Shown here: positions 1 to 9,284 of the stretch, piece after piece
How the letters are laid out: every line of letters begins with the position of its first letter
How positions within the stretch are numbered: the first letter of the stretch is position 1
Virus record (IMG/VR): IMGVR_UViG_3300020162_001876
Coordinates: 1 to 64,000 of that record
Length of the DNA: 64,000 bases
Direction: 5' to 3' (one strand)
Source: a virus
The notes under the pieces: generated by a model
Seen by the model: the letters and a program-made list of their open reading frames with translations, nothing else
What the model was told of the DNA's origin: nothing
Databases searched by the model: none
Program-made: the position numbers and the translations under genes

Positions 1-69
1 TATAAATTAACTTCGTATATTAAGACATAATTAATAATAAAAAATAAGTTTAATTAAAATTTAAAGGTT

Positions 70-471
70 ATGAACAGAAATGAAATTATTGCAAAAGTAA
101 AAGAATTAGGTTTAACAACAGAAAAACCAGCACATCAATGTAAAACAGAGTATTTACAAGAATTACTCAACACACATCATTCAGTTAATATTGAGGTAAA
201 ACAAAAAGGTAGACCTGTGAATGAAAACAGTAACAGACAAAAACGAATTGCTGAATTAGAAGCAAAACGTGCAAACGGTGAATTACGTAAAGGTAGACCG
301 GTTGTTGAAGGGAGTAATCGTCAAATAAGATTATCATTGAAAGGTACTCTTAAATTAGGTAGAAAACCAAACCCAGAAAGTGTAGCTTACAAACGCCGAA
401 TGGAGTTAGAAGCAAAACGTGCAAACGGTGAACTAAAAAGAGGTAGACCAGCACAAGTAAAAGCAGAGTAA
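70..471 (+). CDS. Basic early protein with AT-hook-like GRP repeats
   Basis: KGRP, RKGRP, LGRKP and KRGRP motifs; duplicated ELEAKRANGEL. Confidence 0.75.
   Translation: MNRNEIIAKVKELGLTTEKPAHQCKTEYLQELLNTHHSVNIEVKQKGRPVNENSNRQKRIAELEAKRANGELRKGRPVVEGSNRQIRLSLKGTLKLGRKPNPESVAYKRRMELEAKRANGELKRGRPAQVKAE
256..432 (+). repeat. 27 bp intragenic direct repeat
   Basis: TTAGAAGCAAAACGTGCAAACGGTGAA at 256-282 and 406-432. Confidence 0.9.
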
Positions 472-482
472 TTAAATTAAAA

Positions 483-506
483 AGGGTATAATTTATATTA
501 TACCCT
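483..506 (+). terminator. Stem-loop, possible terminator
   Basis: AGGGTATAAT-TTAT-ATTATACCCT right after the stop at 471; weak U tract. Confidence 0.5.
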
Positions 507-532
507 ATTCTCAACTATTAATCAGTATATAT

Positions 533-772
533 TTGAAAACACCCACTGTAGTAAATAAGAAATACATTAAATCATATAAAAAATACCCCAAATTTGAACC
601 TAAATCAAACCTAATAGTAGGTTGTGTATATTATGGTAGAAACCGTTCAAATCACTTAAAATTAGGTGTATTAACATTATTAGGTGATAAAACATCTACT
701 CTTAAACTTAAAGATGGTAAATCTGTTAAAGTTAAAAATATGACATTAAAAAGTGCTCAATTAGGGTATTAA
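533..772 (+). CDS. Small basic hypothetical protein (TTG start)
   Basis: ORF track; fills the gap between repeats. Confidence 0.55.
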   Translation: MKTPTVVNKKYIKSYKKYPKFEPKSNLIVGCVYYGRNRSNHLKLGVLTLLGDKTSTLKLKDGKSVKVKNMTLKSAQLGY

Positions 773-824
773 AGAGTATAAATTTTCTTCGTATATTAAG
801 ACATAATTAAAAAATATAAACGTT

Positions 825-1046
825 ATGAAAGTAAAAGATTTAATTAAGTTTTTAAGTGAACAAGATCAAAATTTAGAAGTAGTTATTAAACATATTGATC
901 ACACAGATTGGAATTATGAATTACCTTTAAGAGCTCAAGATGTTTATGTGGATGAAGTATTTGAAGTGGATGAAGCTAATTTAGAAAAGGGTCAAGTAAT
1001 TGAAAGTGGGGATGAGTGTTTAGTAATAGAATTAAGCTTTGAATAA
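825..1046 (+). CDS. Hypothetical early protein, N-terminus similar to 6252-6491
   Basis: MKVKDLIKFLSEQDQNLEVV; follows a promoter repeat. Confidence 0.8.
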   Translation: MKVKDLIKFLSEQDQNLEVVIKHIDHTDWNYELPLRAQDVYVDEVFEVDEANLEKGQVIESGDECLVIELSFE

Positions 1047-1053
1047 TAATGTA

Positions 1054-1085
1054 TTTGGCGAGTATAAAATAACTTCGTATATTTA
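1054..1085 (+). promoter_or_regulatory. Bacteroidota-type host-sigma promoter (example copy of the early repeat)
   Basis: TTTG-N20-TATATTTA, close to the -33 TTTG / -7 TAnnTTTG consensus. Confidence 0.8.
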
Positions 1086-1114
1086 ATTATAATTAAAAAT
1101 AAAAATATAAAGTT

Positions 1115-1483
1115 ATGAAAGTATTTAGTAGTGACACAGATCTTTACAAATTTGAAAATTTTGGAAAATTAATTATCAATGAAAAAATTGATAGGAATGA
1201 TCTATGGGGTGAAGGGAGTAATTGGAAATTATTTTTAAAAGAAAATAAAGAATTAAAAAAGGCATTAAAAAAGATTGGAAAAGACTGCTTTGGAAAGGGG
1301 TATAGTATTAAAGAAGATATGTTCTGTTTAATACAATTAATTGATGAAGGAGAATATAACAAAATGTATGTTTCAATATCAGGAGATTCCTCACTTAATT
1401 TTTCAGAAAATTTAGAAGATAAATTTGTAGAAGATTATAATTCAGAAGAAAAATGGGGAGTAAAAAGATGGAAAGAATTATAA
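1115..1483 (+). CDS. Hypothetical early protein
   Basis: ORF follows a promoter repeat; AAAGTTATG start. Confidence 0.8.
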   Translation: MKVFSSDTDLYKFENFGKLIINEKIDRNDLWGEGSNWKLFLKENKELKKALKKIGKDCFGKGYSIKEDMFCLIQLIDEGEYNKMYVSISGDSSLNFSENLEDKFVEDYNSEEKWGVKRWKEL

Positions 1484-1553
1484 AAATAGTATTTGGCGAG
1501 TATAAATTGACTTCGTATATTAAGACATAATTAATAAATAAAAATATAAAGTT

Positions 1554-1826
1554 ATGACAGCAGAACAATTTTTAAACGGAACATCATTCACAGTAGGAGC
1601 ACCAATGTATAGAGGGGCAGAAACATTCAAGTACGATGGTAGTTGTATAATAAGAGAATCTAGATCATCAAAAGATCAAAAAGCATTATTCTTCAGCCAT
1701 GAATGTAATATAATTAAGATAGGTAAGGTAGGATTTACAGGTTTTACTTTTATAGTGAATAAAAGAGTAAACATCAAATACCGATTCGAAGACTTAGTTG
1801 TGTTTGAAGAACAAGAACAAGAATAA
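1554..1826 (+). CDS. Hypothetical early protein
   Basis: ORF follows a promoter repeat. Confidence 0.8.
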   Translation: MTAEQFLNGTSFTVGAPMYRGAETFKYDGSCIIRESRSSKDQKALFFSHECNIIKIGKVGFTGFTFIVNKRVNIKYRFEDLVVFEEQEQE

Positions 1827-1903
1827 TAATAAAGGGCCATGTATTTGGCCCTTATAATTTAACTTCGTATATTAAAATATAATAATTAAAAATATAAAGT
1901 ATT

Positions 1904-2017
1904 ATGAGAAAAGTAATTTTATTAGTAGTGGTGGTTGTTGGTTTATCTATGTTAACTAGTTCTTGTGGTTCATGTAAGGCACATAGTCGTAAGTGGGACA
2001 CTGTAAGAAGATATTAA
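1904..2017 (+). CDS. 37 aa predicted micro-lipoprotein (not in ORF track)
   Basis: MRKVILLVVVVVGLSMLTSSCGSCKAHSRKWDTVRRY: basic N-terminus, hydrophobic core, lipobox-like TSSC; has its own promoter repeat. Confidence 0.75.
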   Translation: MRKVILLVVVVVGLSMLTSSCGSCKAHSRKWDTVRRY

Positions 2018-2106
2018 TAATTGAATAATATAAACCCTCTTAAAATAATTAGGAGGGTATAAATTAACTTCGTATATTAAAATATAATAATTAAAAATAT
2101 AAAGTT

Positions 2107-2448
2107 ATGACAACAATTAAGATTACACACAAAACATTAATGGTGAATCTAGAGTTCCCAATTGAAGTAGGTCAAGTAAAATTGAATGCAGAATGTCAAT
2201 CGTTCATTAGTCAAAACAATGACACAGGTGAGTTAGAAGGTGATTTTGTATTTTTAGATTATGGGAAGGTAACCTACATGGGTATGCCGATTGATGGTTA
2301 TAATGGAATGAAAAAACTAAAAACATTTCATAAGGAGTTAGGTATTGATTTAGATGCTTTAATTGATAATGAATATAATAAGGTTATCACAAGTGATTTC
2401 CAAAAAATATTCATATCAACCTTTGATAAAGGGTTATTCAAAATATAA
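2107..2448 (+). CDS. Hypothetical early protein
   Basis: ORF follows a promoter repeat. Confidence 0.8.
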   Translation: MTTIKITHKTLMVNLEFPIEVGQVKLNAECQSFISQNNDTGELEGDFVFLDYGKVTYMGMPIDGYNGMKKLKTFHKELGIDLDALIDNEYNKVITSDFQKIFISTFDKGLFKI

Positions 2449-2522
2449 TTAATGGGGGCCGGGTATTAGGCCCCTTAATTTTTTCTTCGTATATTAAGAC
2501 ATAATTAAAAATATAAAATATT

Positions 2523-2813
2523 ATGAAAAATTATTTAGGTAGAGAAGTAATTAAAACCGTAAACATCAAAGTAGAAGGTACATTCAAATCCGTTTATGAA
2601 GCCGAAAAACAACTGAGAGAGATGGGGTATATAATAGGAAGTATGAGTGGAAGAGAACCAATTGGATTCGCGTGTGGGGAGAAATATGACTATATCTCGA
2701 AATGGTATAATATGAATTCAGACGAACATAATTTATTAGACGGGGTAATGATCAGTGATGACTGGAGAGAGGGTAGTGTAGATATTATATGGTTTAATGA
2801 ACCAAAACAGTAA
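2523..2813 (+). CDS. Hypothetical early protein
   Basis: ORF follows a promoter repeat. Confidence 0.8.
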   Translation: MKNYLGREVIKTVNIKVEGTFKSVYEAEKQLREMGYIIGSMSGREPIGFACGEKYDYISKWYNMNSDEHNLLDGVMISDDWREGSVDIIWFNEPKQ

Positions 2814-2870
2814 TTGGATAGTATAAAAAGACTTCGTATATTAAATTTATAATTAATAAATAATATAGTT

Positions 2871-3152
2871 ATGAGAAAAGGTACAGTTACAGGTGAATTA
2901 AAATCTATTTTTGAAGAATTAAATATAAAGTATACTGGATGTTACTCCGATACTTATAATTTAAAAAATGGGGAGGATGTTAATTTAAAAAGAGTAGGAG
3001 TAAAATTTATGGGTGTATACCCAACTCAAGAACAAATTAATATAATAAAAGATAAAATGAGTAAAAAAGGATTTACTTATGATTTTATTAAAGAAAATAG
3101 AAGTAAAAGTTTATATAATACTAATGGTACTAGATTCTGTTTCAAGTATTAA
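2871..3152 (+). CDS. Hypothetical early protein
   Basis: ORF follows a promoter repeat. Confidence 0.8.
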   Translation: MRKGTVTGELKSIFEELNIKYTGCYSDTYNLKNGEDVNLKRVGVKFMGVYPTQEQINIIKDKMSKKGFTYDFIKENRSKSLYNTNGTRFCFKY

Positions 3153-3230
3153 AATAATATTATAAGGGGTATTAGGAGAATTTAATATTTCTTCGTATAT
3201 TAAAATATAATAATTAAAAATAATATAGTT

Positions 3231-3440
3231 ATGAGCGAATTAAGATGGACAGACCAAGACATGATCAATTTTGCAGGACGATTCTCAGAATATGAAGTGT
3301 GTGAGGAACATTTAGATGATTATAGAGAGGATGTAACAATAGAAGCTCTTAAGAAAAGAATTGAGGAAATAGTTTTTAAGGTAAAAGATAATCCAGAGTT
3401 ATTATTACAAATAGAGAATATTATAAATTCTAAAAAATAA
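3231..3440 (+). CDS. Hypothetical early protein
   Basis: ORF follows a promoter repeat. Confidence 0.75.
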   Translation: MSELRWTDQDMINFAGRFSEYEVCEEHLDDYREDVTIEALKKRIEEIVFKVKDNPELLLQIENIINSKK

Positions 3441-3445
3441 AAGTT

Positions 3446-3688
3446 ATGTTAGTATTTAAAGAAAATGTTTACGGTTTTGTTTATGATTCACAGTATGGTA
3501 ATGTTACTCAAATTTTCAAAACACCATTAGATGAAGAAACAATTAATATAATTGAAGAATCAATTGATGAAGATTATGATATTTTATTTACAGACATTGA
3601 AGATGTAAAAGAAATGTTTGAGATAACATCTAAAGAAGATTTAGATGGTGATGAAGAAGGTTTTAATGAAGTACTTGATTTTATATAG
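3446..3688 (+). CDS. Very acidic small protein
   Basis: D/E-rich; AAAGTTATG start directly after the previous stop. Confidence 0.75.
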   Translation: MLVFKENVYGFVYDSQYGNVTQIFKTPLDEETINIIEESIDEDYDILFTDIEDVKEMFEITSKEDLDGDEEGFNEVLDFI

Positions 3689-3699
3689 TGTTATAATGT

Positions 3700-3875
3700 G
3701 GAAAACACCTTCTAGTGTATTGGTATAATAAATGAGTATTCATGTGTGGGTATAAAATAAATGTATCTTATATGGAAACTGGGAGGTGTTAGGGTGAATA
3801 TAATAGGCAAGGTTCCGCTCCCGCGTGTATGTCATGAATGAGTTTCCTACCCATTCACCTTGTATATACACTCTT
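3700..3875. ncRNA. Candidate structured non-coding element
   Basis: No credible ORF; several 5-7 bp complementary segment pairs (see findings). Confidence 0.35.
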
Positions 3876-3951
3876 AAAAACCCCATTTAAAAAATATAAG
3901 GGGTATAAAATAATTTCGTATATTATATTATAATTAATAAAATAATAAATT

Positions 3952-4113
3952 ATGAAAAAGTTAATATTAAATGTTAAGTATTTTGGTATCTGGGGTATAA
4001 ATAAAATATATTCTTTAAAAGATTTAAGATTAGATACACCCATACCATTACCCACAATGATAATAATTTTAGTTGCTTGGTGGATGTTATTAACTTATTT
4101 ATTAATTTTATAA
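3952..4113 (+). CDS. 53 aa membrane protein (not in ORF track)
   Basis: MKKLILNVKYFGIWGINKIYSLKDLRLDTPIPLPTMIIILVAWWMLLTYLLIL; follows a promoter repeat; C-terminal hydrophobic helix. Confidence 0.7.
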   Translation: MKKLILNVKYFGIWGINKIYSLKDLRLDTPIPLPTMIIILVAWWMLLTYLLIL

Positions 4114-4176
4114 TACCTGGTTTGGCAAGTATAAAATAACTTCGTATATTATATTATAATTAAAAATAAAAATATT

Positions 4177-4383
4177 ATGAAAAGTTTAGAAGATTACATT
4201 AATTCAAATTTTGAGGAGTTCAATAGTTTAGACAGCAATGAAGTGATCGAGTGCACCACCGATGAATTTAGTAACTCAGAAATTGAGTATTTAAAATTCA
4301 ACTACAGATTTGATTACAGAGGCATATGTGTGTATTATGTTTCAGATTCAGATGAAGTGTGGATTGAAAATATGAATATATAA
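4177..4383 (+). CDS. Acidic hypothetical early protein
   Basis: ORF follows a promoter repeat. Confidence 0.75.
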   Translation: MKSLEDYINSNFEEFNSLDSNEVIECTTDEFSNSEIEYLKFNYRFDYRGICVYYVSDSDEVWIENMNI

Positions 4384-4445
4384 CCCCGCTTGGAGTGTAT
4401 AAAATAACTTCGTATATTATATTATAATAATTAAAATTAAAGGTT

Positions 4446-4661
4446 ATGATAACAAAAAATAGTTGTATTCTATTTAATAGACATGAAATAAATTATCTTA
4501 CAGTTGAATTAGGGTCTGCTGAACATTCAGAAGCATATAATAAGGGGTATGAATATAGAGGACCAGCTTATGTTGCTAATACAATTGAAATTGAAGCAAT
4601 GGATGAAGCTAATAAAACATTTATTAAAAGTCTTAAAATGAATTTGGAGGTATTAAATTAA
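4446..4661 (+). CDS. Hypothetical early protein
   Basis: ORF follows a promoter repeat. Confidence 0.75.
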   Translation: MITKNSCILFNRHEINYLTVELGSAEHSEAYNKGYEYRGPAYVANTIEIEAMDEANKTFIKSLKMNLEVLN

Positions 4662-4703
4662 TTTCGTATATTATATTATAATTAAAAATTAAAATTAAAG
4701 GTT

Positions 4704-4940
4704 ATGAAAGCTAAAGTACAAATTAAATCAGTGTTCGAACAAATCGCTAGTAACGTGTTTACAATGAAAGACATTAACCAAGCTAAGGTATTCATCACTG
4801 AATTTATCACCAGTAAAGGTATAGACGGTGTAGATAAAAATACTATCGTGTATAACGTGAATAAATGTTCTAATATCAACCAATTACAACGTTACGTATG
4901 TAATTCGTTATTAATGTACGAAGGAATGGGAGTTAATTAA
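4704..4940 (+). CDS. Hypothetical early protein
   Basis: ORF follows a promoter repeat and precedes a terminator. Confidence 0.8.
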   Translation: MKAKVQIKSVFEQIASNVFTMKDINQAKVFITEFITSKGIDGVDKNTIVYNVNKCSNINQLQRYVCNSLLMYEGMGVN

Positions 4941-4965
4941 ACTCCCGTTTTTTTCTCTTTTTTTT
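4928..4965 (+). terminator. Intrinsic terminator closing the main early array
   Basis: GGGAGTT-AATTA-AACTCCC followed by a long T tract. Confidence 0.85.
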
Positions 4966-4979
4966 GAAATAAAGTTTGG

Positions 4980-5140
4980 AGGGACACCCTACCCGAACGC
5001 ACATGCACCACACACGAACGGGCACGGGTTGGCGCCGATCGCCCACGCGTCGTTGCTGTCCGTAACGGGAACGTGATCGAACAGTACACAAATTTCCCGC
5101 CCTTTCAGATCGAAAACGATCTTTCGCCCAGGCCCCTGTA
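4980..5140. other. GC-rich, CpG-rich non-coding island with multiple stems
   Basis: 95/160 G+C over 4981-5140 by hand count, in a very AT-rich window; several inverted repeats. Confidence 0.7.
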
Positions 5141-5214
5141 TATACTCATATATTAAAACAAATGCAGGTCTCCCCTTATCCCATATACTTATAGGAAATT
5201 AAATTTAAATCAAA

Positions 5215-5448
5215 ATGAAACAGATCAAAACCTTAACTTCAATGAGTGAAACGCTTGTTCTCCTATTGGAAGATCTAACCAACTTATTAAATGATATCGA
5301 TAATAGTGATTTAGTAAGGGAAATTGAGAATAACGTTGTTTCTCCCATGGAAGACGCGCAAGCACAATTAGATATTATTTTAGATGATATCGATGAGGGT
5401 ATTTATGATGAATACTCAGGAGAAGAGGATTTCGAAGAGTGGGAATAA
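5215..5448 (+). CDS. Acidic helical hypothetical protein
   Basis: ORF track; ATACTTAT upstream resembles the late motif. Confidence 0.7.
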   Translation: MKQIKTLTSMSETLVLLLEDLTNLLNDIDNSDLVREIENNVVSPMEDAQAQLDIILDDIDEGIYDEYSGEEDFEEWE

Positions 5449-5573
5449 CCATTTCGGGAAGTTTTCTTTGGGATGCAAAAATCTCTTTTTAAAAACTTTT
5501 TTGGGAAACCTTGTATATATACTTGGTTTCCTAATTTTTCCTTCGTATATTATATCATATTAATTTAAAATAT

Positions 5574-6239
5574 ATGTTTATGAAAAAGGTTTTATTGTTT
5601 TTAAGTTTAGTTTTTATTTTATTTTCATGTTCGGTTCCCGAAACATATGCTCCACCTTGTCTAGATGGTAGTTGTGATGCTGTTTTTAAGATTGATGAAC
5701 AAACTAACCCAGGCTCATATCAAGATGCTAATGGTGTATGGCATGTTAGATATACCGGGTTAAATTATTTTACTGTTATAGGAGATTTAGATCAATTAAA
5801 TCCAGAATATATTATTAATGGAACACCTTTAATTGAAACAGCATTTGATTCAAATTATTTTTATATAGCAAGGAATGTGTCATGGACTTACCCTATATAT
5901 TCATATTTGGGAATGTTTTCTAATGGTAATTTTTCTACCCCAATTCCTGTAGGTTATCAAACATATACTTTTTCTCAATTAAATTCTCAAACTAGTATAA
6001 TGAATTTAGCAGGATATACTATTCATAAGAATCCTCACCCCGATATTAATCATCCTGCTTATCCTACTTACTTTTCTTCTTATAGTAAGTATAATTATAA
6101 TCCGAAACAAAGTATGGTATTTTTCCCAGAAATGATAGGACAACAAGTTGAGGTTTATATTAGAGTTACTTTTAATAGTGATTTCTATGGTAGTAGGGAA
6201 GAAAAATTTTATACATTACGCATTATATTTGAAAATTAA
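5574..6239 (+). CDS. Predicted lipoprotein
   Basis: MKKVLLFLSLVFILFSC type II signal; behind the last early repeat. Confidence 0.8.
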   Translation: MFMKKVLLFLSLVFILFSCSVPETYAPPCLDGSCDAVFKIDEQTNPGSYQDANGVWHVRYTGLNYFTVIGDLDQLNPEYIINGTPLIETAFDSNYFYIARNVSWTYPIYSYLGMFSNGNFSTPIPVGYQTYTFSQLNSQTSIMNLAGYTIHKNPHPDINHPAYPTYFSSYSKYNYNPKQSMVFFPEMIGQQVEVYIRVTFNSDFYGSREEKFYTLRIIFEN

Positions 6240-6251
6240 AATAAGAAAAAT

Positions 6252-6491
6252 ATGACTATAGAAGAACTAATTAAAACTCTCTCTACCTTAGATCCTAACC
6301 TAAGAGTTGTAACTCGTGGTTATGAAGGAGGATATGATGATGTAGGATGGCCTATAGATAAGGATTCTCCTAACGTTATTGATCTAGCACTTAATGTTAA
6401 TCCAGAATGGTATTATGGTAACCATGAAATGGTAAGTGAAGATCATCAGTATAGCCCAGAAACTAAAATTGTAAAAGCTATTGTGTTATGA
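6252..6491 (+). CDS. Hypothetical protein, N-terminus similar to 825-1046
   Basis: MTIEELIKTLSTLDPNLRVV. Confidence 0.8.
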   Translation: MTIEELIKTLSTLDPNLRVVTRGYEGGYDDVGWPIDKDSPNVIDLALNVNPEWYYGNHEMVSEDHQYSPETKIVKAIVL

Positions 6492-6595
6492 AAGAGTGTA
6501 AACATGATTTTAGAGAATTTTGGAAAGTAGATTGGTTTGGAAGACTTAAACTTAAAGAGATTAAATGTATTTATTGTAATTTAAGAAAGAAATGA
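6488..6595 (+). CDS. 35 aa putative zinc-ribbon protein (not in ORF track)
   Basis: MKECKHDF...KCIYCNLRKK with CxH and CxxC; ATGA overlaps with both neighbours. Confidence 0.7.
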   Translation: MKECKHDFREFWKVDWFGRLKLKEIKCIYCNLRKK

Positions 6596-6798
6596 TAGTT
6601 TTATTGTATATATGGATTTTAGTTAAGGCGTATTTGAAATTAGGATTGTTTATGGCTTCCCTTGTTACTATAATAACCTTTATAAATAATACTATAGATA
6701 AGACATGGTTTAGAGATTTTATCTTTACTCTTTTTCTTTACCCTGTAGTAATTTATTATCTTATAAAAGAATTAGAAAATGGAGATGGACCTGAATAA
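6592..6798 (+). CDS. Small membrane protein
   Basis: Two hydrophobic segments. Confidence 0.7.
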   Translation: MIVLLYIWILVKAYLKLGLFMASLVTIITFINNTIDKTWFRDFIFTLFLYPVVIYYLIKELENGDGPE

Positions 6799-7069
6799 AC
6801 AGTTGGTTCCTTATATGGAACATATTATTAATCAAACCTTAGATATGGTTGAATCTTTATCTAAAGAAAAAGGCCTTGATGTTAAAGAGATAAGTAAGTT
6901 AATTTCTGAATTGGAAATTGAGTTTGGAGACTATACTACATTGTTATCCCCACAAATTCAAGGTAGAATAATGGAGATTAACCATTATATATTAAATAAT
7001 AATAAGATATATGAAGGGTCAAATACCTCACTTAATACCCAACCTTTTGATAATAATTCAAAGAAATAA
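6779..7069 (+). CDS. Hypothetical protein
   Basis: ORF track. Confidence 0.65.
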   Translation: MEMDLNKQLVPYMEHIINQTLDMVESLSKEKGLDVKEISKLISELEIEFGDYTTLLSPQIQGRIMEINHYILNNNKIYEGSNTSLNTQPFDNNSKK

Positions 7070-7165
7070 AAGACTTTTAAAAGCTTCTGCCAAAAGGCTT
7101 GGCTTGCAGAGAAATGTTTTGTATTTTTAGAGTACGGGAAAAGAAAATGAACAAAATAAGACGAT

Positions 7166-7468
7166 ATGAATGAGAAAGAAATAATAACGTTCACAATAAC
7201 AGGATGTAGATATTGTGAGGAATTAGAGAGAGGATTGGATAAGGAAGGGATAAAGTATAAGAATATGGATGTAAGTAGGAATAATGATATAGGAGATATA
7301 ATAGAGGGTACTTATAAATGTACTAAATATCCAATGGTAGTATTTCATAGTCCTAATCGATCATTAATTTGGTTACCTGAAACTAATTTATTACCTTCAC
7401 CTAATATTAGAATTTACGATAATATAAATCAAATAATAAAAGAAATAAAAAATGAACTTAACAGCTGA
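7166..7468 (+). CDS. Glutaredoxin-like protein
   Basis: CRYC active site; YP cis-proline motif. Confidence 0.85.
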   Translation: MNEKEIITFTITGCRYCEELERGLDKEGIKYKNMDVSRNNDIGDIIEGTYKCTKYPMVVFHSPNRSLIWLPETNLLPSPNIRIYDNINQIIKEIKNELNS

Positions 7469-8207
7469 ACAAATTAAAAGTAATTGGGATAGTTTAATGT
7501 CTCGTATTGATACTTACATATCAGAACCAAGACGTACTCAATTAAAAGAATTTTATGGAAATTATCAAGAACGTATCATTATGATGCCTGCTTCTTATAA
7601 AAAAGAATATCATAATGCTTTTCCTGGAGGATATGTAGATCATGTCTTGAGAGTTATAGATGGAGCTATTAAAATAAATAATATTTGGAAAGAAATGGGA
7701 GTAGATCAAGATACTTATACTACTGAAGAATTAGTATTTTCTGCTTTAAATCATGATTTAGGTAAAATAGGAGATGAAAATCACGAATCTTATATCCCTC
7801 AGACTGACCAATGGAGAAAAGATAAATTAGGAGAAGATTATATGTTTAATGATGCTTTAGCATTTGCATCAGTCCCAGATCGTTCTTTATTTTTACTCCA
7901 GTCTAACGGTATCCAATATACTTTTAATGAAATGGTTGCCATTCAGACACATGATGGTATTTATGATGAGGGAAATAAAAAATACTTAGCTACTTTTAAT
8001 CCAGGACAAAAACCTAGAACATCTTTACCTTATATTTTACATCAAGCTGATTTAATGGCTTCTCGTATTGAATTTGAAAAAGAATGGTTACCTAAATTTA
8101 AAGGTGGAAAGAAAGTAGAGATTAAAACGTCTAAACCTGTGATTAAACAACAAACTAAATTGTCTAACGCAAATGCGCCATTTGCAAATTTATTAAATAA
8201 TATATAA
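7452..8207 (+). CDS. HD-domain phosphohydrolase (YhaM-like HD)
   Basis: YHNAFPGGYVDH, NHDLGK, THDG, LHQAD. Confidence 0.85.
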   Translation: MNLTAEQIKSNWDSLMSRIDTYISEPRRTQLKEFYGNYQERIIMMPASYKKEYHNAFPGGYVDHVLRVIDGAIKINNIWKEMGVDQDTYTTEELVFSALNHDLGKIGDENHESYIPQTDQWRKDKLGEDYMFNDALAFASVPDRSLFLLQSNGIQYTFNEMVAIQTHDGIYDEGNKKYLATFNPGQKPRTSLPYILHQADLMASRIEFEKEWLPKFKGGKKVEIKTSKPVIKQQTKLSNANAPFANLLNNI

Positions 8208-8482
8208 TGGAAGTTTTCATATTTTCAGTACTAGTATTAGTAGCTATAGTAGGATATATCATTTGGAATTTACTTCTTAAAGTAGAAAAATTAGAGAATA
8301 CTATTGAAGTTCAAGAAAAATATATTTTGGATTTTTACGATTTAGTAAAAACATCAGAAAATAAAATTAAAGAAATTGATTCTAAACAATTATTCCAATC
8401 AGATGATGAGGTAGGTTTTTTCTTTACTAATTTAAAAGTAATCCAAGAATCCCTTTCGGATTATATTAAATTTATAAAATAA
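8207..8482 (+). CDS. N-terminal transmembrane plus coiled-coil protein
   Basis: Hydrophobic N-terminus followed by a helical charged region. Confidence 0.75.
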   Translation: MEVFIFSVLVLVAIVGYIIWNLLLKVEKLENTIEVQEKYILDFYDLVKTSENKIKEIDSKQLFQSDDEVGFFFTNLKVIQESLSDYIKFIK

Positions 8483-8483
8483 T

Positions 8484-9284
8484 ATGGAGATATTAAATTC
8501 TGAAATTAAAATACTTCATATACCTCAAGAAGAAACAGAAGTACAATATACTAAAAAAGGAACAGTTCGAAAAAGAAAACCTAAAGAAAAAAAGCAATAC
8601 TTCACTCAAGATACAGAAGATGCTATTATAGAGTATTTAGCTGCAACTGATTTACATATTAGAAATAAAATTTATAACGAACGTATTAAATATGCTTTTC
8701 ATAAATTAACTGAAAATATAATTCATACATTTAAATTTTATTATACTGAAGTAGAAACAATAGCTGAACTTCAACATGAAGTAACAGCCTTTCTGCTTGA
8801 AAAACTACATTTATATAAACAATCAAAAGGTAAAGCTTATTCTTATTTTGGTACTATTGCTAAACGTTATTTAATTCTTTATAATAATAAAAATTATGAA
8901 AAGTTAAAAGGTAAAGCAGAAGTAGCAGATATAGATGAAGATAGAACTATTGTTTCTAATATAGTAAATGATTCTGAAAGTATAGATGATCCTTTAATGG
9001 GTGAAAATTATTTTATAGATAAATTTATTCAATATATGGATTTATATCTATTCAAAATATTCCCAGAAATTGAAGATGCTAAAACTGCTGAAGCTATTAT
9101 GCAGCTTTTTAAATTTAGAGAAAGTTTAGATATTTTCAATAAGAAAGGAATTTATATTTATATTAGAGAACAAACAGACCAAGATACTCCTCAAATAACT
9201 AAAGTAATAAAAAGGTTAGAAAAAGTTTATAAACGTTTACATTATCAATATCTAGATTATGGATATGTTAGCTTAAATTATTAA
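8484..9284 (+). CDS. Putative late-transcription sigma factor (T4 gp55-like)
   Basis: KAYSYFGTIAKRYLI resembles the gp55 / sigma region 2 motif (F/Y)xYFxxI; last gene before the late block. Confidence 0.65.
   Translation: MEILNSEIKILHIPQEETEVQYTKKGTVRKRKPKEKKQYFTQDTEDAIIEYLAATDLHIRNKIYNERIKYAFHKLTENIIHTFKFYYTEVETIAELQHEVTAFLLEKLHLYKQSKGKAYSYFGTIAKRYLILYNNKNYEKLKGKAEVADIDEDRTIVSNIVNDSESIDDPLMGENYFIDKFIQYMDLYLFKIFPEIEDAKTAEAIMQLFKFRESLDIFNKKGIYIYIREQTDQDTPQITKVIKRLEKVYKRLHYQYLDYGYVSLNY

Follow-up and report, generated by a model that had tools for sequence, protein, structure and literature searches.

Promoter-stem-loop cassettes (PeSLs) have been described in the T4-type phages RB49/phi1, T4/PST and KVP40/nt-1 (Arbiol et al., 2010, PMC2839356; Comeau et al., 2014, PMC4122927), and general recombination between the cassette copies has been proposed as the mechanism for the PeSLs of T4-type coliphages (PMC2839356; PMC4122927). 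In addition, the T4 early promoters form a set of ~40 strong sigma-70 promoters with an extended consensus, which are located before small early genes (PMC2988021). Here we analyzed the first 64 kb (the window) of a 110,998-bp virus contig (IMG/VR record IMGVR_UViG_3300020162_001876; completeness estimate 68%), in which positions 1-5573 are occupied by small open reading frames (ORFs) separated by copies of one repeated intergenic unit. We conclude that this stretch is probably a PeSL-like array of early promoter cassettes in the downstream part of the hyperplastic early region of a T4-related myophage. Like PeSLs, it consists of repeated intergenic units of ~60-70 bp in a hyperplastic region of a T4-related myovirus with single orphan genes (ORFans) behind them, the units carrying a strong host-type early promoter (predicted here) and sometimes an adjacent GC stem-loop; in both cases the units delimit the indels, replacements and rearrangements that distinguish relatives, and a dedicated recombinase is lacking. 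In contrast to the sigma-70 -35/-10 elements of PeSLs, the unit studied here has a Bacteroidota-type -33/-7 arrangement with an invariant TTCG and no TG, and it continues as a conserved leader without Shine-Dalgarno sequence up to the ATG. It further differs from PeSLs in that a stem-loop accompanies only 5 of the 14 copies, with its 3' arm over the -33 element, and in that a second design, in which a hairpin is nested in the promoter spacer, exists elsewhere in the genome. The likeness to PeSLs had been suggested by an earlier reading made from the sequence alone (the original prediction) and is borne out by a gp23 gene, ORFan cargo, a gene order that is not fixed and homology-block edges that lie in the repeats.

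The virus is identified as a T4-type myovirus by a T4-type gp23 major capsid gene (PF07068) at window 56555-57976 (E=4.7e-75), and all 79 long ORFs of the window lie on the plus strand. Among named and also among cultured phages, the closest to it are the 160-kb Flavobacterium phages vB_FspM_immuto (hereafter immuto), and its presumed hosts are Flavobacterium-type bacteria. We also used a complete 168-kb relative, G001, whose locus is listed as L022 among the related virus stretches compared (L-numbered loci), and ~140 related loci were included in the homolog survey. Strains were compared by means of Logan assembled contigs from the metagenome runs X1-X12. Near-identical sequence (30-97% of 31-mers) was found in freshwater and lake metagenomes from about ten studies (2020-2025), and the phage lineage is widespread in lakes, its strains differing in cassette content.

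The repeat unit and its reading as a promoter

The 10-mer TTCGTATATT, which forms the core of the unit, occurs exactly 14 times in the window between positions 12 and 5551, always on the plus strand, and is absent from the remaining 58 kb of the window, while five further exact copies are found at 102-109 kb of the contig. The cores start at 12, 788, 1074, 1512, 1864, 2069, 2486, 2833, 3192, 3915, 4141, 4409, 4663 and 5542, and a control pattern read backwards gave 0 forward matches and 1 reverse match over the 111-kb contig. All copies are in register and read T(T/A)GG-N15-TTCG-TATATT-N5-ATAAT, followed by an A-rich leader and (G)TTATG, with a distance from core to ATG of 32-42 nt (58 nt for copy 1) and a different ORF behind each copy. 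These 14 predicted promoters serve 17 genes, namely 16 array ORFs and an anchor gene, since ORFs 533, 3446 and 5215 each lack a copy. With 14 copies in 5.6 kb, and with dense arrays also in G001 and immuto, the locus thus contains a repeated intergenic motif of ~60-70 bp in a hyperplastic region, as PeSL-bearing regions do. The original prediction that 14 copies each stand before the ATG of their own ORF agrees with these data, but its statement that every one of these ORFs is small and unrelated to the others applies with two exceptions: ORF825 and ORF6252 share a weak N-terminal similarity (22 aa), and the last copy (5542) heads a conserved, lipoprotein-like gene of 221 aa and not a small ORFan.

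Several subtypes of the unit coexist in the array, in the order A A x A B B A x B C C C C C (x denoting copies outside the three main subtypes). The order of these labels is clustered with respect to both same-label adjacency (P=0.025) and label span (P=0.003), mainly due to the terminal run of C copies. An ungapped cassette-identity test within the window revealed no adjacency effect (P~0.5) and was replaced by the label-order test because leader indels blur the ungapped measure. The positional clustering of subtypes that had been predicted is therefore real but modest, and the coordinates originally attached to the subtypes mark the unit start (the base before TTCG) and not the variant strings. 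Strong hairpins are located immediately upstream of four copies, at 1832-1853, 2034-2058, 2454-2475 and 5502-5533 (dG -13 to -16 kcal/mol, z -3.6 to -5.5), and a fifth, weak one at 3880-3904 (dG -7.2, z -2.1). In all five, the GG of the -33 element is covered by the 3' arm, and no upstream hairpin was found at the remaining 8 foldable copies. Stem-loops reaching into the -33 region had been proposed for the same five sites, so that this proposal is retained with the reservation that one of them is weak.

The Flavobacterium sigma-A recognizes a -7 box, TAnnTTTG, at -12 to -5, and the median length of 5' untranslated regions (5'UTRs) is 24 nt (PMC9723704). When TATATT of the phage unit is set at -12..-7, T(T/A)GG is located at about -36..-32 (TTTG -36..-33), TTCG at -16..-13 and ATAAT at the predicted start, which results in predicted 5'UTRs of 20-26 nt that are A-rich and have no Shine-Dalgarno sequence. 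A correctly placed TTG or T(A)GG is present in 12 of 13 copies and TAnnTT in all of them, with a spacing of 20 nt, while none of 19 copies has the final TG. Hence the unit resembles Bacteroidota sigma-A promoters in the position and spacing of TTG and TAnnTT, in its ~24-nt 5'UTRs and in the lack of a Shine-Dalgarno sequence, but differs from them in having A/T instead of TG at -6/-5 and an invariant TTCG at -16..-13, a tetranucleotide that is not covered by the host consensus TAnnTTTG (-12 to -5) as quoted in PMC9723704. A scan of bacterial genomes for TTGG-N15-TTCGTATATT, which gives many chance matches, showed that TG follows and completes TAnnTTTG in 21 of 40 matches in Bacteroidota compared to 4 of 41 in other phyla (Fisher P=3e-5), and this excess supports both the register and a host-type origin of the motif. 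A generic sigma-70 scan revealed no overall enrichment, although it picked up TTGGCN-17-TATATT in several copies. Taken together, geometry, 5'UTR length and host-genome comparison fit the originally proposed Bacteroidota promoter and support the reading of the unit as a predicted -33/-7 promoter of the sigma-A type. In the literature that we searched, no earlier description of the motif in Bacteroidota phages was found.

Beyond what the original prediction had covered, the same core also drives tRNA operons and replication genes. Exact cores at contig positions 102005, 102087 and 105652 lie just 5' of tRNA clusters (24 tRNA genes, G000:C1:102005-106610), one of them immediately in front of the gene that opens the 24-gene tRNA region and another in front of tRNA-Leu, and weaker versions of the core precede the genes for the DNA polymerase exonuclease subunit, an ATPase, an HNH-type protein and thymidylate kinase. 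No core was found in front of the structural genes of the contig. The presence of one core before tRNA and replication genes indicates a general early-type promoter and no dedicated recombination site. Recognition by host sigma-A alone would be the simplest reading of its elements, and the genes behind it suggest an early timing. A comparable situation exists in T4, whose early promoters are likewise numerous, near-identical and strong, contain more information than those of the host, and precede small non-essential early genes and tRNA genes, and here too reading by the host polymerase appears likely. In contrast to the T4 early promoters, the promoters of the present array belong to another host phylum with another consensus, occur once per ~400 bp and run into a common leader. 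A dual early/late function was considered for the spacer sequence GTATAAAT on account of the T4 late box TATAAATA and was rejected, as TATAAATA is not enriched upstream of genes.

Gene order and probable exchange at the cassettes

The array is conserved as an architecture across the clade. Immuto carries 16 copies in ~14 kb, each before a small gene, and its unit reads aGTTGC-N14-TTC(G/A/T)TATATT followed by a leader that is homogeneous to that phage. G001 has 43 exact cores, all on the same strand, and a stretch of 16.7 kb contains 29 of them; the motif was detected in at least 119 IMG/VR stretches. Throughout the clade TTGG and TTCGTATATT are constant, while spacer and leader vary between phages. 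The array of the window and that of immuto occupy the same place 5' of conserved anchor genes, yet have only 1 of 16 array ORFs in common.

In relatives that do contain homologs of the array genes, the order of these genes is different in each case. Using the gene labels of the window, the order is 1554, 3952, 2523, 70+533, 4704, 5215 in L022; 1554, 2523, 825, 4704, 5215 in L041; 2871, 825, ..., 1554 in L033; 2107, 70, 4704, 4177 in L105; 5215, 6252, 5574 in L021; and 825, ..., 70, 533, 1554 in L147, with yet other orders in L149 and L150. Among the 14 array pairs that are adjacent in the window, only 70->533, which have one common promoter, are ever adjacent in relatives (3/3), whereas repeat-free pairs downstream of the array keep their adjacency (6592->6779 in 4/4 loci and 7166->7452 in 7/7). 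The two-gene segment 788-1511, flanked in the window by two A-type copies, is missing in L010 and L149, and blocks of DNA homology start or stop within ~50 nt of a core. Furthermore, the amino-acid identity of neighboring genes in L041 ranges from 49% to 95%, and such jumps point to a mosaic history. Indels, replacements and reordering are thus bounded by the motif, in intergenic DNA that is essentially all repeat. The alignment with related phages, which had been set beforehand as a refutation test of the original prediction, revealed neither a fixed gene order nor breakpoints unrelated to the repeats.

The sequences in front of the genes also bear features that point to exchange. When orthologous genes are compared, their promoter spacers and proximal leaders reach only the similarity of promoter pairs drawn at random across genomes (~0.5). 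Other promoters of the window's own genome match these window promoters at up to 100% identity, and leader identity amounts to 0.67-0.71 within genomes compared to 0.51-0.58 between genomes. Promoter and leader sequence therefore tracks the resident genome, not the gene. L149 and L146 retain, with hardly a base changed as far as the ATG, the hairpin, A-type promoter and leader that precede ORF2523 in the window, but the gene behind them is a different ORF of 62 aa; ORF2523 comes next, behind a mosaic promoter composed of a P788-like upstream part and a P1074-like leader. The same gene is found in L022 with 85% amino-acid identity, at a different position and behind a different promoter. In G001 two identical cassettes of 66 nt (L022:5939-6004 and 6272-6337) flank the ORF1554 homolog, an arrangement expected after recent exchange or conversion between copies, and in the window itself cassettes 5 and 6 share 42 exact nt and flank a gene of 37 aa.

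A similar picture emerged from natural strains: four independent studies of lakes or other freshwater yielded contigs whose breaks or joints lie at cassettes. A contig from run X5 matches window 3691-4128, continues with 532 nt of other sequence and then matches 4683-4953, and in a contig from run X3 window position 1059 is joined directly to 3192. Contigs from X4 and X6 pass from the leader into different genes, in X6 at cassette 13, and homologs of ORF1115 (~89% identity in X3) and ORF825 are located behind other promoter subtypes in strain contigs. Near-identical lake strains accordingly differ by whole cassettes. Some metagenome contigs also contain joints that lead back to an earlier part of the array, as would the cassette mini-circles that belong to the PeSL model and arise there by exchange between neighboring motifs, but these joints are explained equally well by other gene orders.

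Proposed recombination between cassettes and competing explanations

According to the explanation that we consider the best, host RNA polymerase with sigma-A would most likely read the unit right after infection, and the invariant TTCG may make up for the lack of the TG that the host -7 box contains. In about a third of the copies, the hairpin with its 3' arm over the -33 element would stop transcripts of the upstream gene, resulting in a composite terminator/promoter. As the units provide 24-66 nt of near-identical sequence in direct orientation every 200-700 bp, the phage's own general recombination could cross over between copies. Deletion, insertion, replacement and reordering of single promoter-plus-gene units would be the expected products, along with homogenization of the cassettes within a genome.

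Several observations weigh against this explanation. The exact homology between cassette pairs is short, with a median of 14 nt (24-42 nt within subtypes), and hairpins in only 5 of 14 copies mean that most copies are plain promoters and not composite promoter/terminators. Since the intergenic DNA is almost all repeat, any breakpoint between genes would fall within a repeat, and block edges are therefore no guide as to whether recombination at the repeats or some other movement of whole genes took place; the homogeneity within genomes could partly reflect selection for a genome-specific optimum. The Logan contigs were built at k=31, so that chimeras, mis-joins and breaks at repeats are possible among them. 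Finally, the TG of the host -7 box is found in 0 of 19 phage copies here and in 0 of 29 in the G001 array, in the presence of an invariant TTCG, and its constant absence makes recognition by unmodified sigma-A uncertain.

Some of these points suit an explanation in which the repeats are promoters only, kept alike by selection for polymerase binding and translation, while gene turnover results from illegitimate recombination, horizontal transfer or homing endonucleases. This explanation, which we regard as possible though somewhat unlikely, predicts from functional constraint that one core drives tRNA and replication genes and is conserved clade-wide, as is the case; it is also compatible with the uninformative block edges and the short cassette homology, and immuto has a T5orf172-domain gene in its array and an HNH endonuclease gene nearby. 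However, no endonuclease gene is present in the array of the window, and the coexistence of several subtypes in one genome, clustered by position, argues against a single selected optimum. Moreover, selection on promoter function alone does not readily account for promoters and leaders that track the resident genome instead of the orthologous gene, for the two identical 66-nt copies around one gene in G001, for the retention of a whole promoter and leader before a different gene in L149, or for the loss of adjacency only in pairs separated by repeats.

A more far-reaching version of the cassette-recombination explanation is that the unit represents a new promoter class of a large clade of T4-related Flavobacteriia phages, maybe aided by a phage factor and including the hairpin-in-spacer design, which doubles as the crossover site of active shuffling and gives rise to the cassette-level differences between lake strains. 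We consider this version, taken as a whole, to be unlikely. Still less probable, in our estimate, is that a phage factor, injected with the DNA or made very early, reads the invariant TTCG, which would make the units a phage-specific promoter class of the middle type and would fit either view of recombination. The invariance of TTCG at -16..-13 across a clade with differing spacers and leaders speaks for such a factor, as do the absence of the host TG from every phage copy, compared to its presence in 53% of the Bacteroidota genomic matches, and the use of weaker motif versions by replication genes. In contrast, the -33/-7 elements and their spacing fit sigma-A, and a promoter before the first small genes and tRNAs is most simply an early one read by the host polymerase. 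Searches for a sigma-70 region 2 domain (PF04542) were negative in both phage genomes, although T4-type co-activators would escape that search.

It is very improbable that the order of the array is an assembly artefact, i.e. a chimeric contig threaded through short repeats. It is true that the first base of the contig falls within a repeat, that the starts of many related contigs lie shortly 5' of the anchor gene and that most Logan contigs end in cassettes. However, the exact repeats are at most 42 nt long and thus below the usual k-mers of assemblers, and the same architecture is present in the cultured immuto genomes. Independent contigs bridge the junctions, with X3 spanning 4397-5293 with 3 differences and X4, X5 and X6 spanning cassette 14, and L149, L147 and L146 confirm the 70-533 link, the 533/1554 neighborhood and the junction between 2107, hairpin and promoter. 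Least of all survives the integron-like array of the original prediction, or a lox-like one, with the repeat as the site of a dedicated recombinase: despite a linear layout of single-gene cassettes with variable content, as in integrons, and the presence in copies 1074, 4141 and 4409 of the 13-mer ATAACTTCGTATA, which equals a loxP arm, this reading is largely refuted by the absence of tyrosine (PF00589) and serine (PF00239) recombinases from the contig and even from the complete 168-kb G001 (control genomes were positive), by the lack of an attC-type or lox-type inverted site or any inverted partner arm in the window, and by the fact that the cassettes carry a promoter each rather than sharing one Pc. 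We rejected the loxP-arm identity at 1069-1081, 4136-4148 and 4404-4416 as a coincidental half-site, there being no partner arm and no recombinase.

If general recombination between promoter cassettes indeed shapes the array, the PeSL idea, in which regulatory cassettes serve as recombination sites that shuffle orphan genes, would extend from phages of Proteobacteria to T4-related phages of Bacteroidota, whose hosts follow another promoter grammar and lack Shine-Dalgarno sequences, suggesting a general route for the diversification of early genes in large virulent phages. The unit also offers a precise, testable early-promoter consensus for phages widespread in freshwater and marine environments, which can aid annotation and be a source of strong promoters for Flavobacterium genetics, and it explains why assemblies of these phages break at the array region. 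In addition, the 16 small proteins are candidates for host-takeover and counter-defence screens in the cultured system of immuto and Flavobacterium sp. LMO8.

Genes, islands and hairpins of the array

The features described below all lie on the plus strand. Cassette 1 (1-69; core 12-21, subtype A) is truncated by the contig start and leads, via its 58-nt leader, into ORF70 (70-471; 133 aa, basic), whose product has a HeH-like N-terminus and repeated, AT-hook-like GRP units. A 10-bp hairpin (483-506) separates ORF70 from ORF533 (533-772; 79 aa, basic), which has no cassette of its own and lies beside the ORF70 homolog in 3/3 loci having both. Cassette 2 (768-824; core 788, subtype A) precedes ORF825 (825-1046; 73 aa), an acidic ORFan found at four different array positions among relatives. 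The N-terminal ~22 aa of ORF825 and ORF6252 (window 825-890 and 6252-6317) are alike (50% identity, E~6e-4), while the remainder is different. Cassette 3 (1054-1114; core 1074, subtype TAATT) is followed by the ORFan ORF1115 (1115-1483; 122 aa), for which no homolog was found in the ~140 related loci or in the metagenome scan, and cassette 4 (1492-1553; core 1512, subtype A) by ORF1554 (1554-1826; 90 aa), the most conserved array gene and a member of the backbone.

The next three cassettes have strong hairpins. Hairpin and cassette 5 (1832-1903; core 1864, subtype B; dG -14.7 kcal/mol, z -5.3) stand before the lipoprotein-like ORF1904 (1904-2017; 37 aa), which is replaced by another gene in L149; hairpin and cassette 6 (2034-2106; core 2069, subtype B; dG -13.3, z -4.9) before the ORFan ORF2107 (2107-2448; 113 aa); and hairpin and cassette 7 (2454-2522; core 2486, subtype A; dG -16.2) before ORF2523 (2523-2813; 96 aa), likewise an ORFan. 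Cassette 8 (2813-2870; core 2833, subtype AAATT) heads ORF2871 (2871-3152; 93 aa), whose homolog precedes the ORF825 homolog in L033, and cassette 9 (3172-3230; core 3192, subtype B) is common to the two acidic ORFs 3231 (69 aa) and 3446 (80 aa), which together cover 3231-3688. Behind non-coding island A (3689-3879) the C-type copies begin with the weak hairpin and cassette 10 (3880-3951; core 3915), followed by ORF3952 (3952-4113; 53 aa) with a C-terminal membrane segment. Cassette 11 (4121-4176; core 4141, subtype C), which forms the left edge of the two-cassette replacement in run X5, precedes the acidic ORF4177 (4177-4383; 68 aa); cassette 12 (4389-4445; core 4409, subtype C) precedes ORF4446 (4446-4661; 71 aa), an ORFan with no homolog among the related loci; and cassette 13 (4643-4703; core 4663, subtype C), the right edge of the X5 replacement, precedes ORF4704 (4704-4940; 78 aa). 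A terminator-like hairpin followed by a T-run (4920-4954) marks the end of ORF4704, and the GC-rich non-coding island B (4955-5214) separates it from ORF5215 (5215-5448; 77 aa), an acidic backbone gene without a cassette of its own. Hairpin and cassette 14 (5502-5573; core 5542, subtype C'; dG -14.2, z -5.5) finally lead into the anchor gene (5574-6239; 221 aa), the lipoprotein-like homolog of immuto gp122.

The proteins encoded in the array are 37-133 aa long; five of them are strongly acidic, two strongly basic and two membrane- or lipoprotein-like. None of the 16 array ORFs passed the curated Pfam cut-off, searches against PHROGs gave two marginal matches only, both to families of unknown function, and PADLOC gave sub-threshold or marginal matches with no functional assignment. 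Four array ORFs have no homolog even among the ~140 related loci, in line with the association of PeSLs with ORFans. By analogy with the early regions of T4, the label of host-takeover or anti-defence cargo is a reasonable guess. ORF70 is the most widespread accessory gene, with homologs in 14 loci at varying positions. In proteins of its family, a ~28-aa unit whose GRP core is invariant is repeated 3-5 times, the number of repeats differing between phages, and some members have an optional HeH/SAP-like N-terminus; this repeat pattern suggests that the proteins may bind AT-rich DNA. A search of the ESM Atlas with ORF70 gave no usable match. For the ORF1554 family a confident AlphaFold2 model was obtained (pLDDT 85), which had no significant structural match in PDB and BFVD (best E~0.3).

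The two non-coding islands that interrupt the array, 3689-3879 and 4955-5214, end in the same C-rich plus TGTATATAC box, a 9-mer that occurs on the plus strand of the 111-kb contig only at 3861 and 5137. We considered TGTATATAC as a second promoter class and rejected it, as it is confined to the ends of the two islands. Island A is conserved in L150 and L041. Island B, with a conserved core at ~5014-5180, is always found beside the ORF5215 homolog across 11 loci, located 5' of it in the window, L041 and L022 and 3' of it in L010, L021, L033, L106, L141 and L143. Its conserved blocks comprise CCCACGCGnCGTTGCTGTCC, the palindrome AGATCGAAAACGATCT and CCCnTRTATATAC. RNAalifold revealed no covariation in this GC-rich island, which from its conserved blocks looks like a DNA-level or protein-binding element, and an Rfam scan of 1-9000 at E<=1 returned only a chance microRNA match.

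The contig start falls inside a repeat copy, and L012, L013, L014, L017 and L021 start at most a few hundred bases 5' of the anchor gene or within an array gene. Because this contig and related ones start at or near repeats, the array probably continues upstream of window position 1, in a region that is prone to break assemblies.

Elsewhere in the genome, a compact design of the form TTGG-hairpin-TTnnTATATT was observed, where the promoter spacer is filled exactly by a hairpin with a GC stem of 7 bp and a loop of 3 nt. Seven such sites are present in the contig, at window 36994, 38544, 43028 and 45966 and at G000:C1:84802, 86667 and 98056 (dG -9 to -12 kcal/mol, z -3.7 to -5.9), and others in G001 and at L023:909 and 7175 (gene strand). 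The sites with an annotated downstream gene (36994, 43028 and 45966) precede replication or nucleotide-metabolism genes. The 5' arm of the nested hairpin begins at the GG of the -33 element and the 3' arm enters the T-rich -7 region, so that the design would be a predicted terminator inside a promoter.

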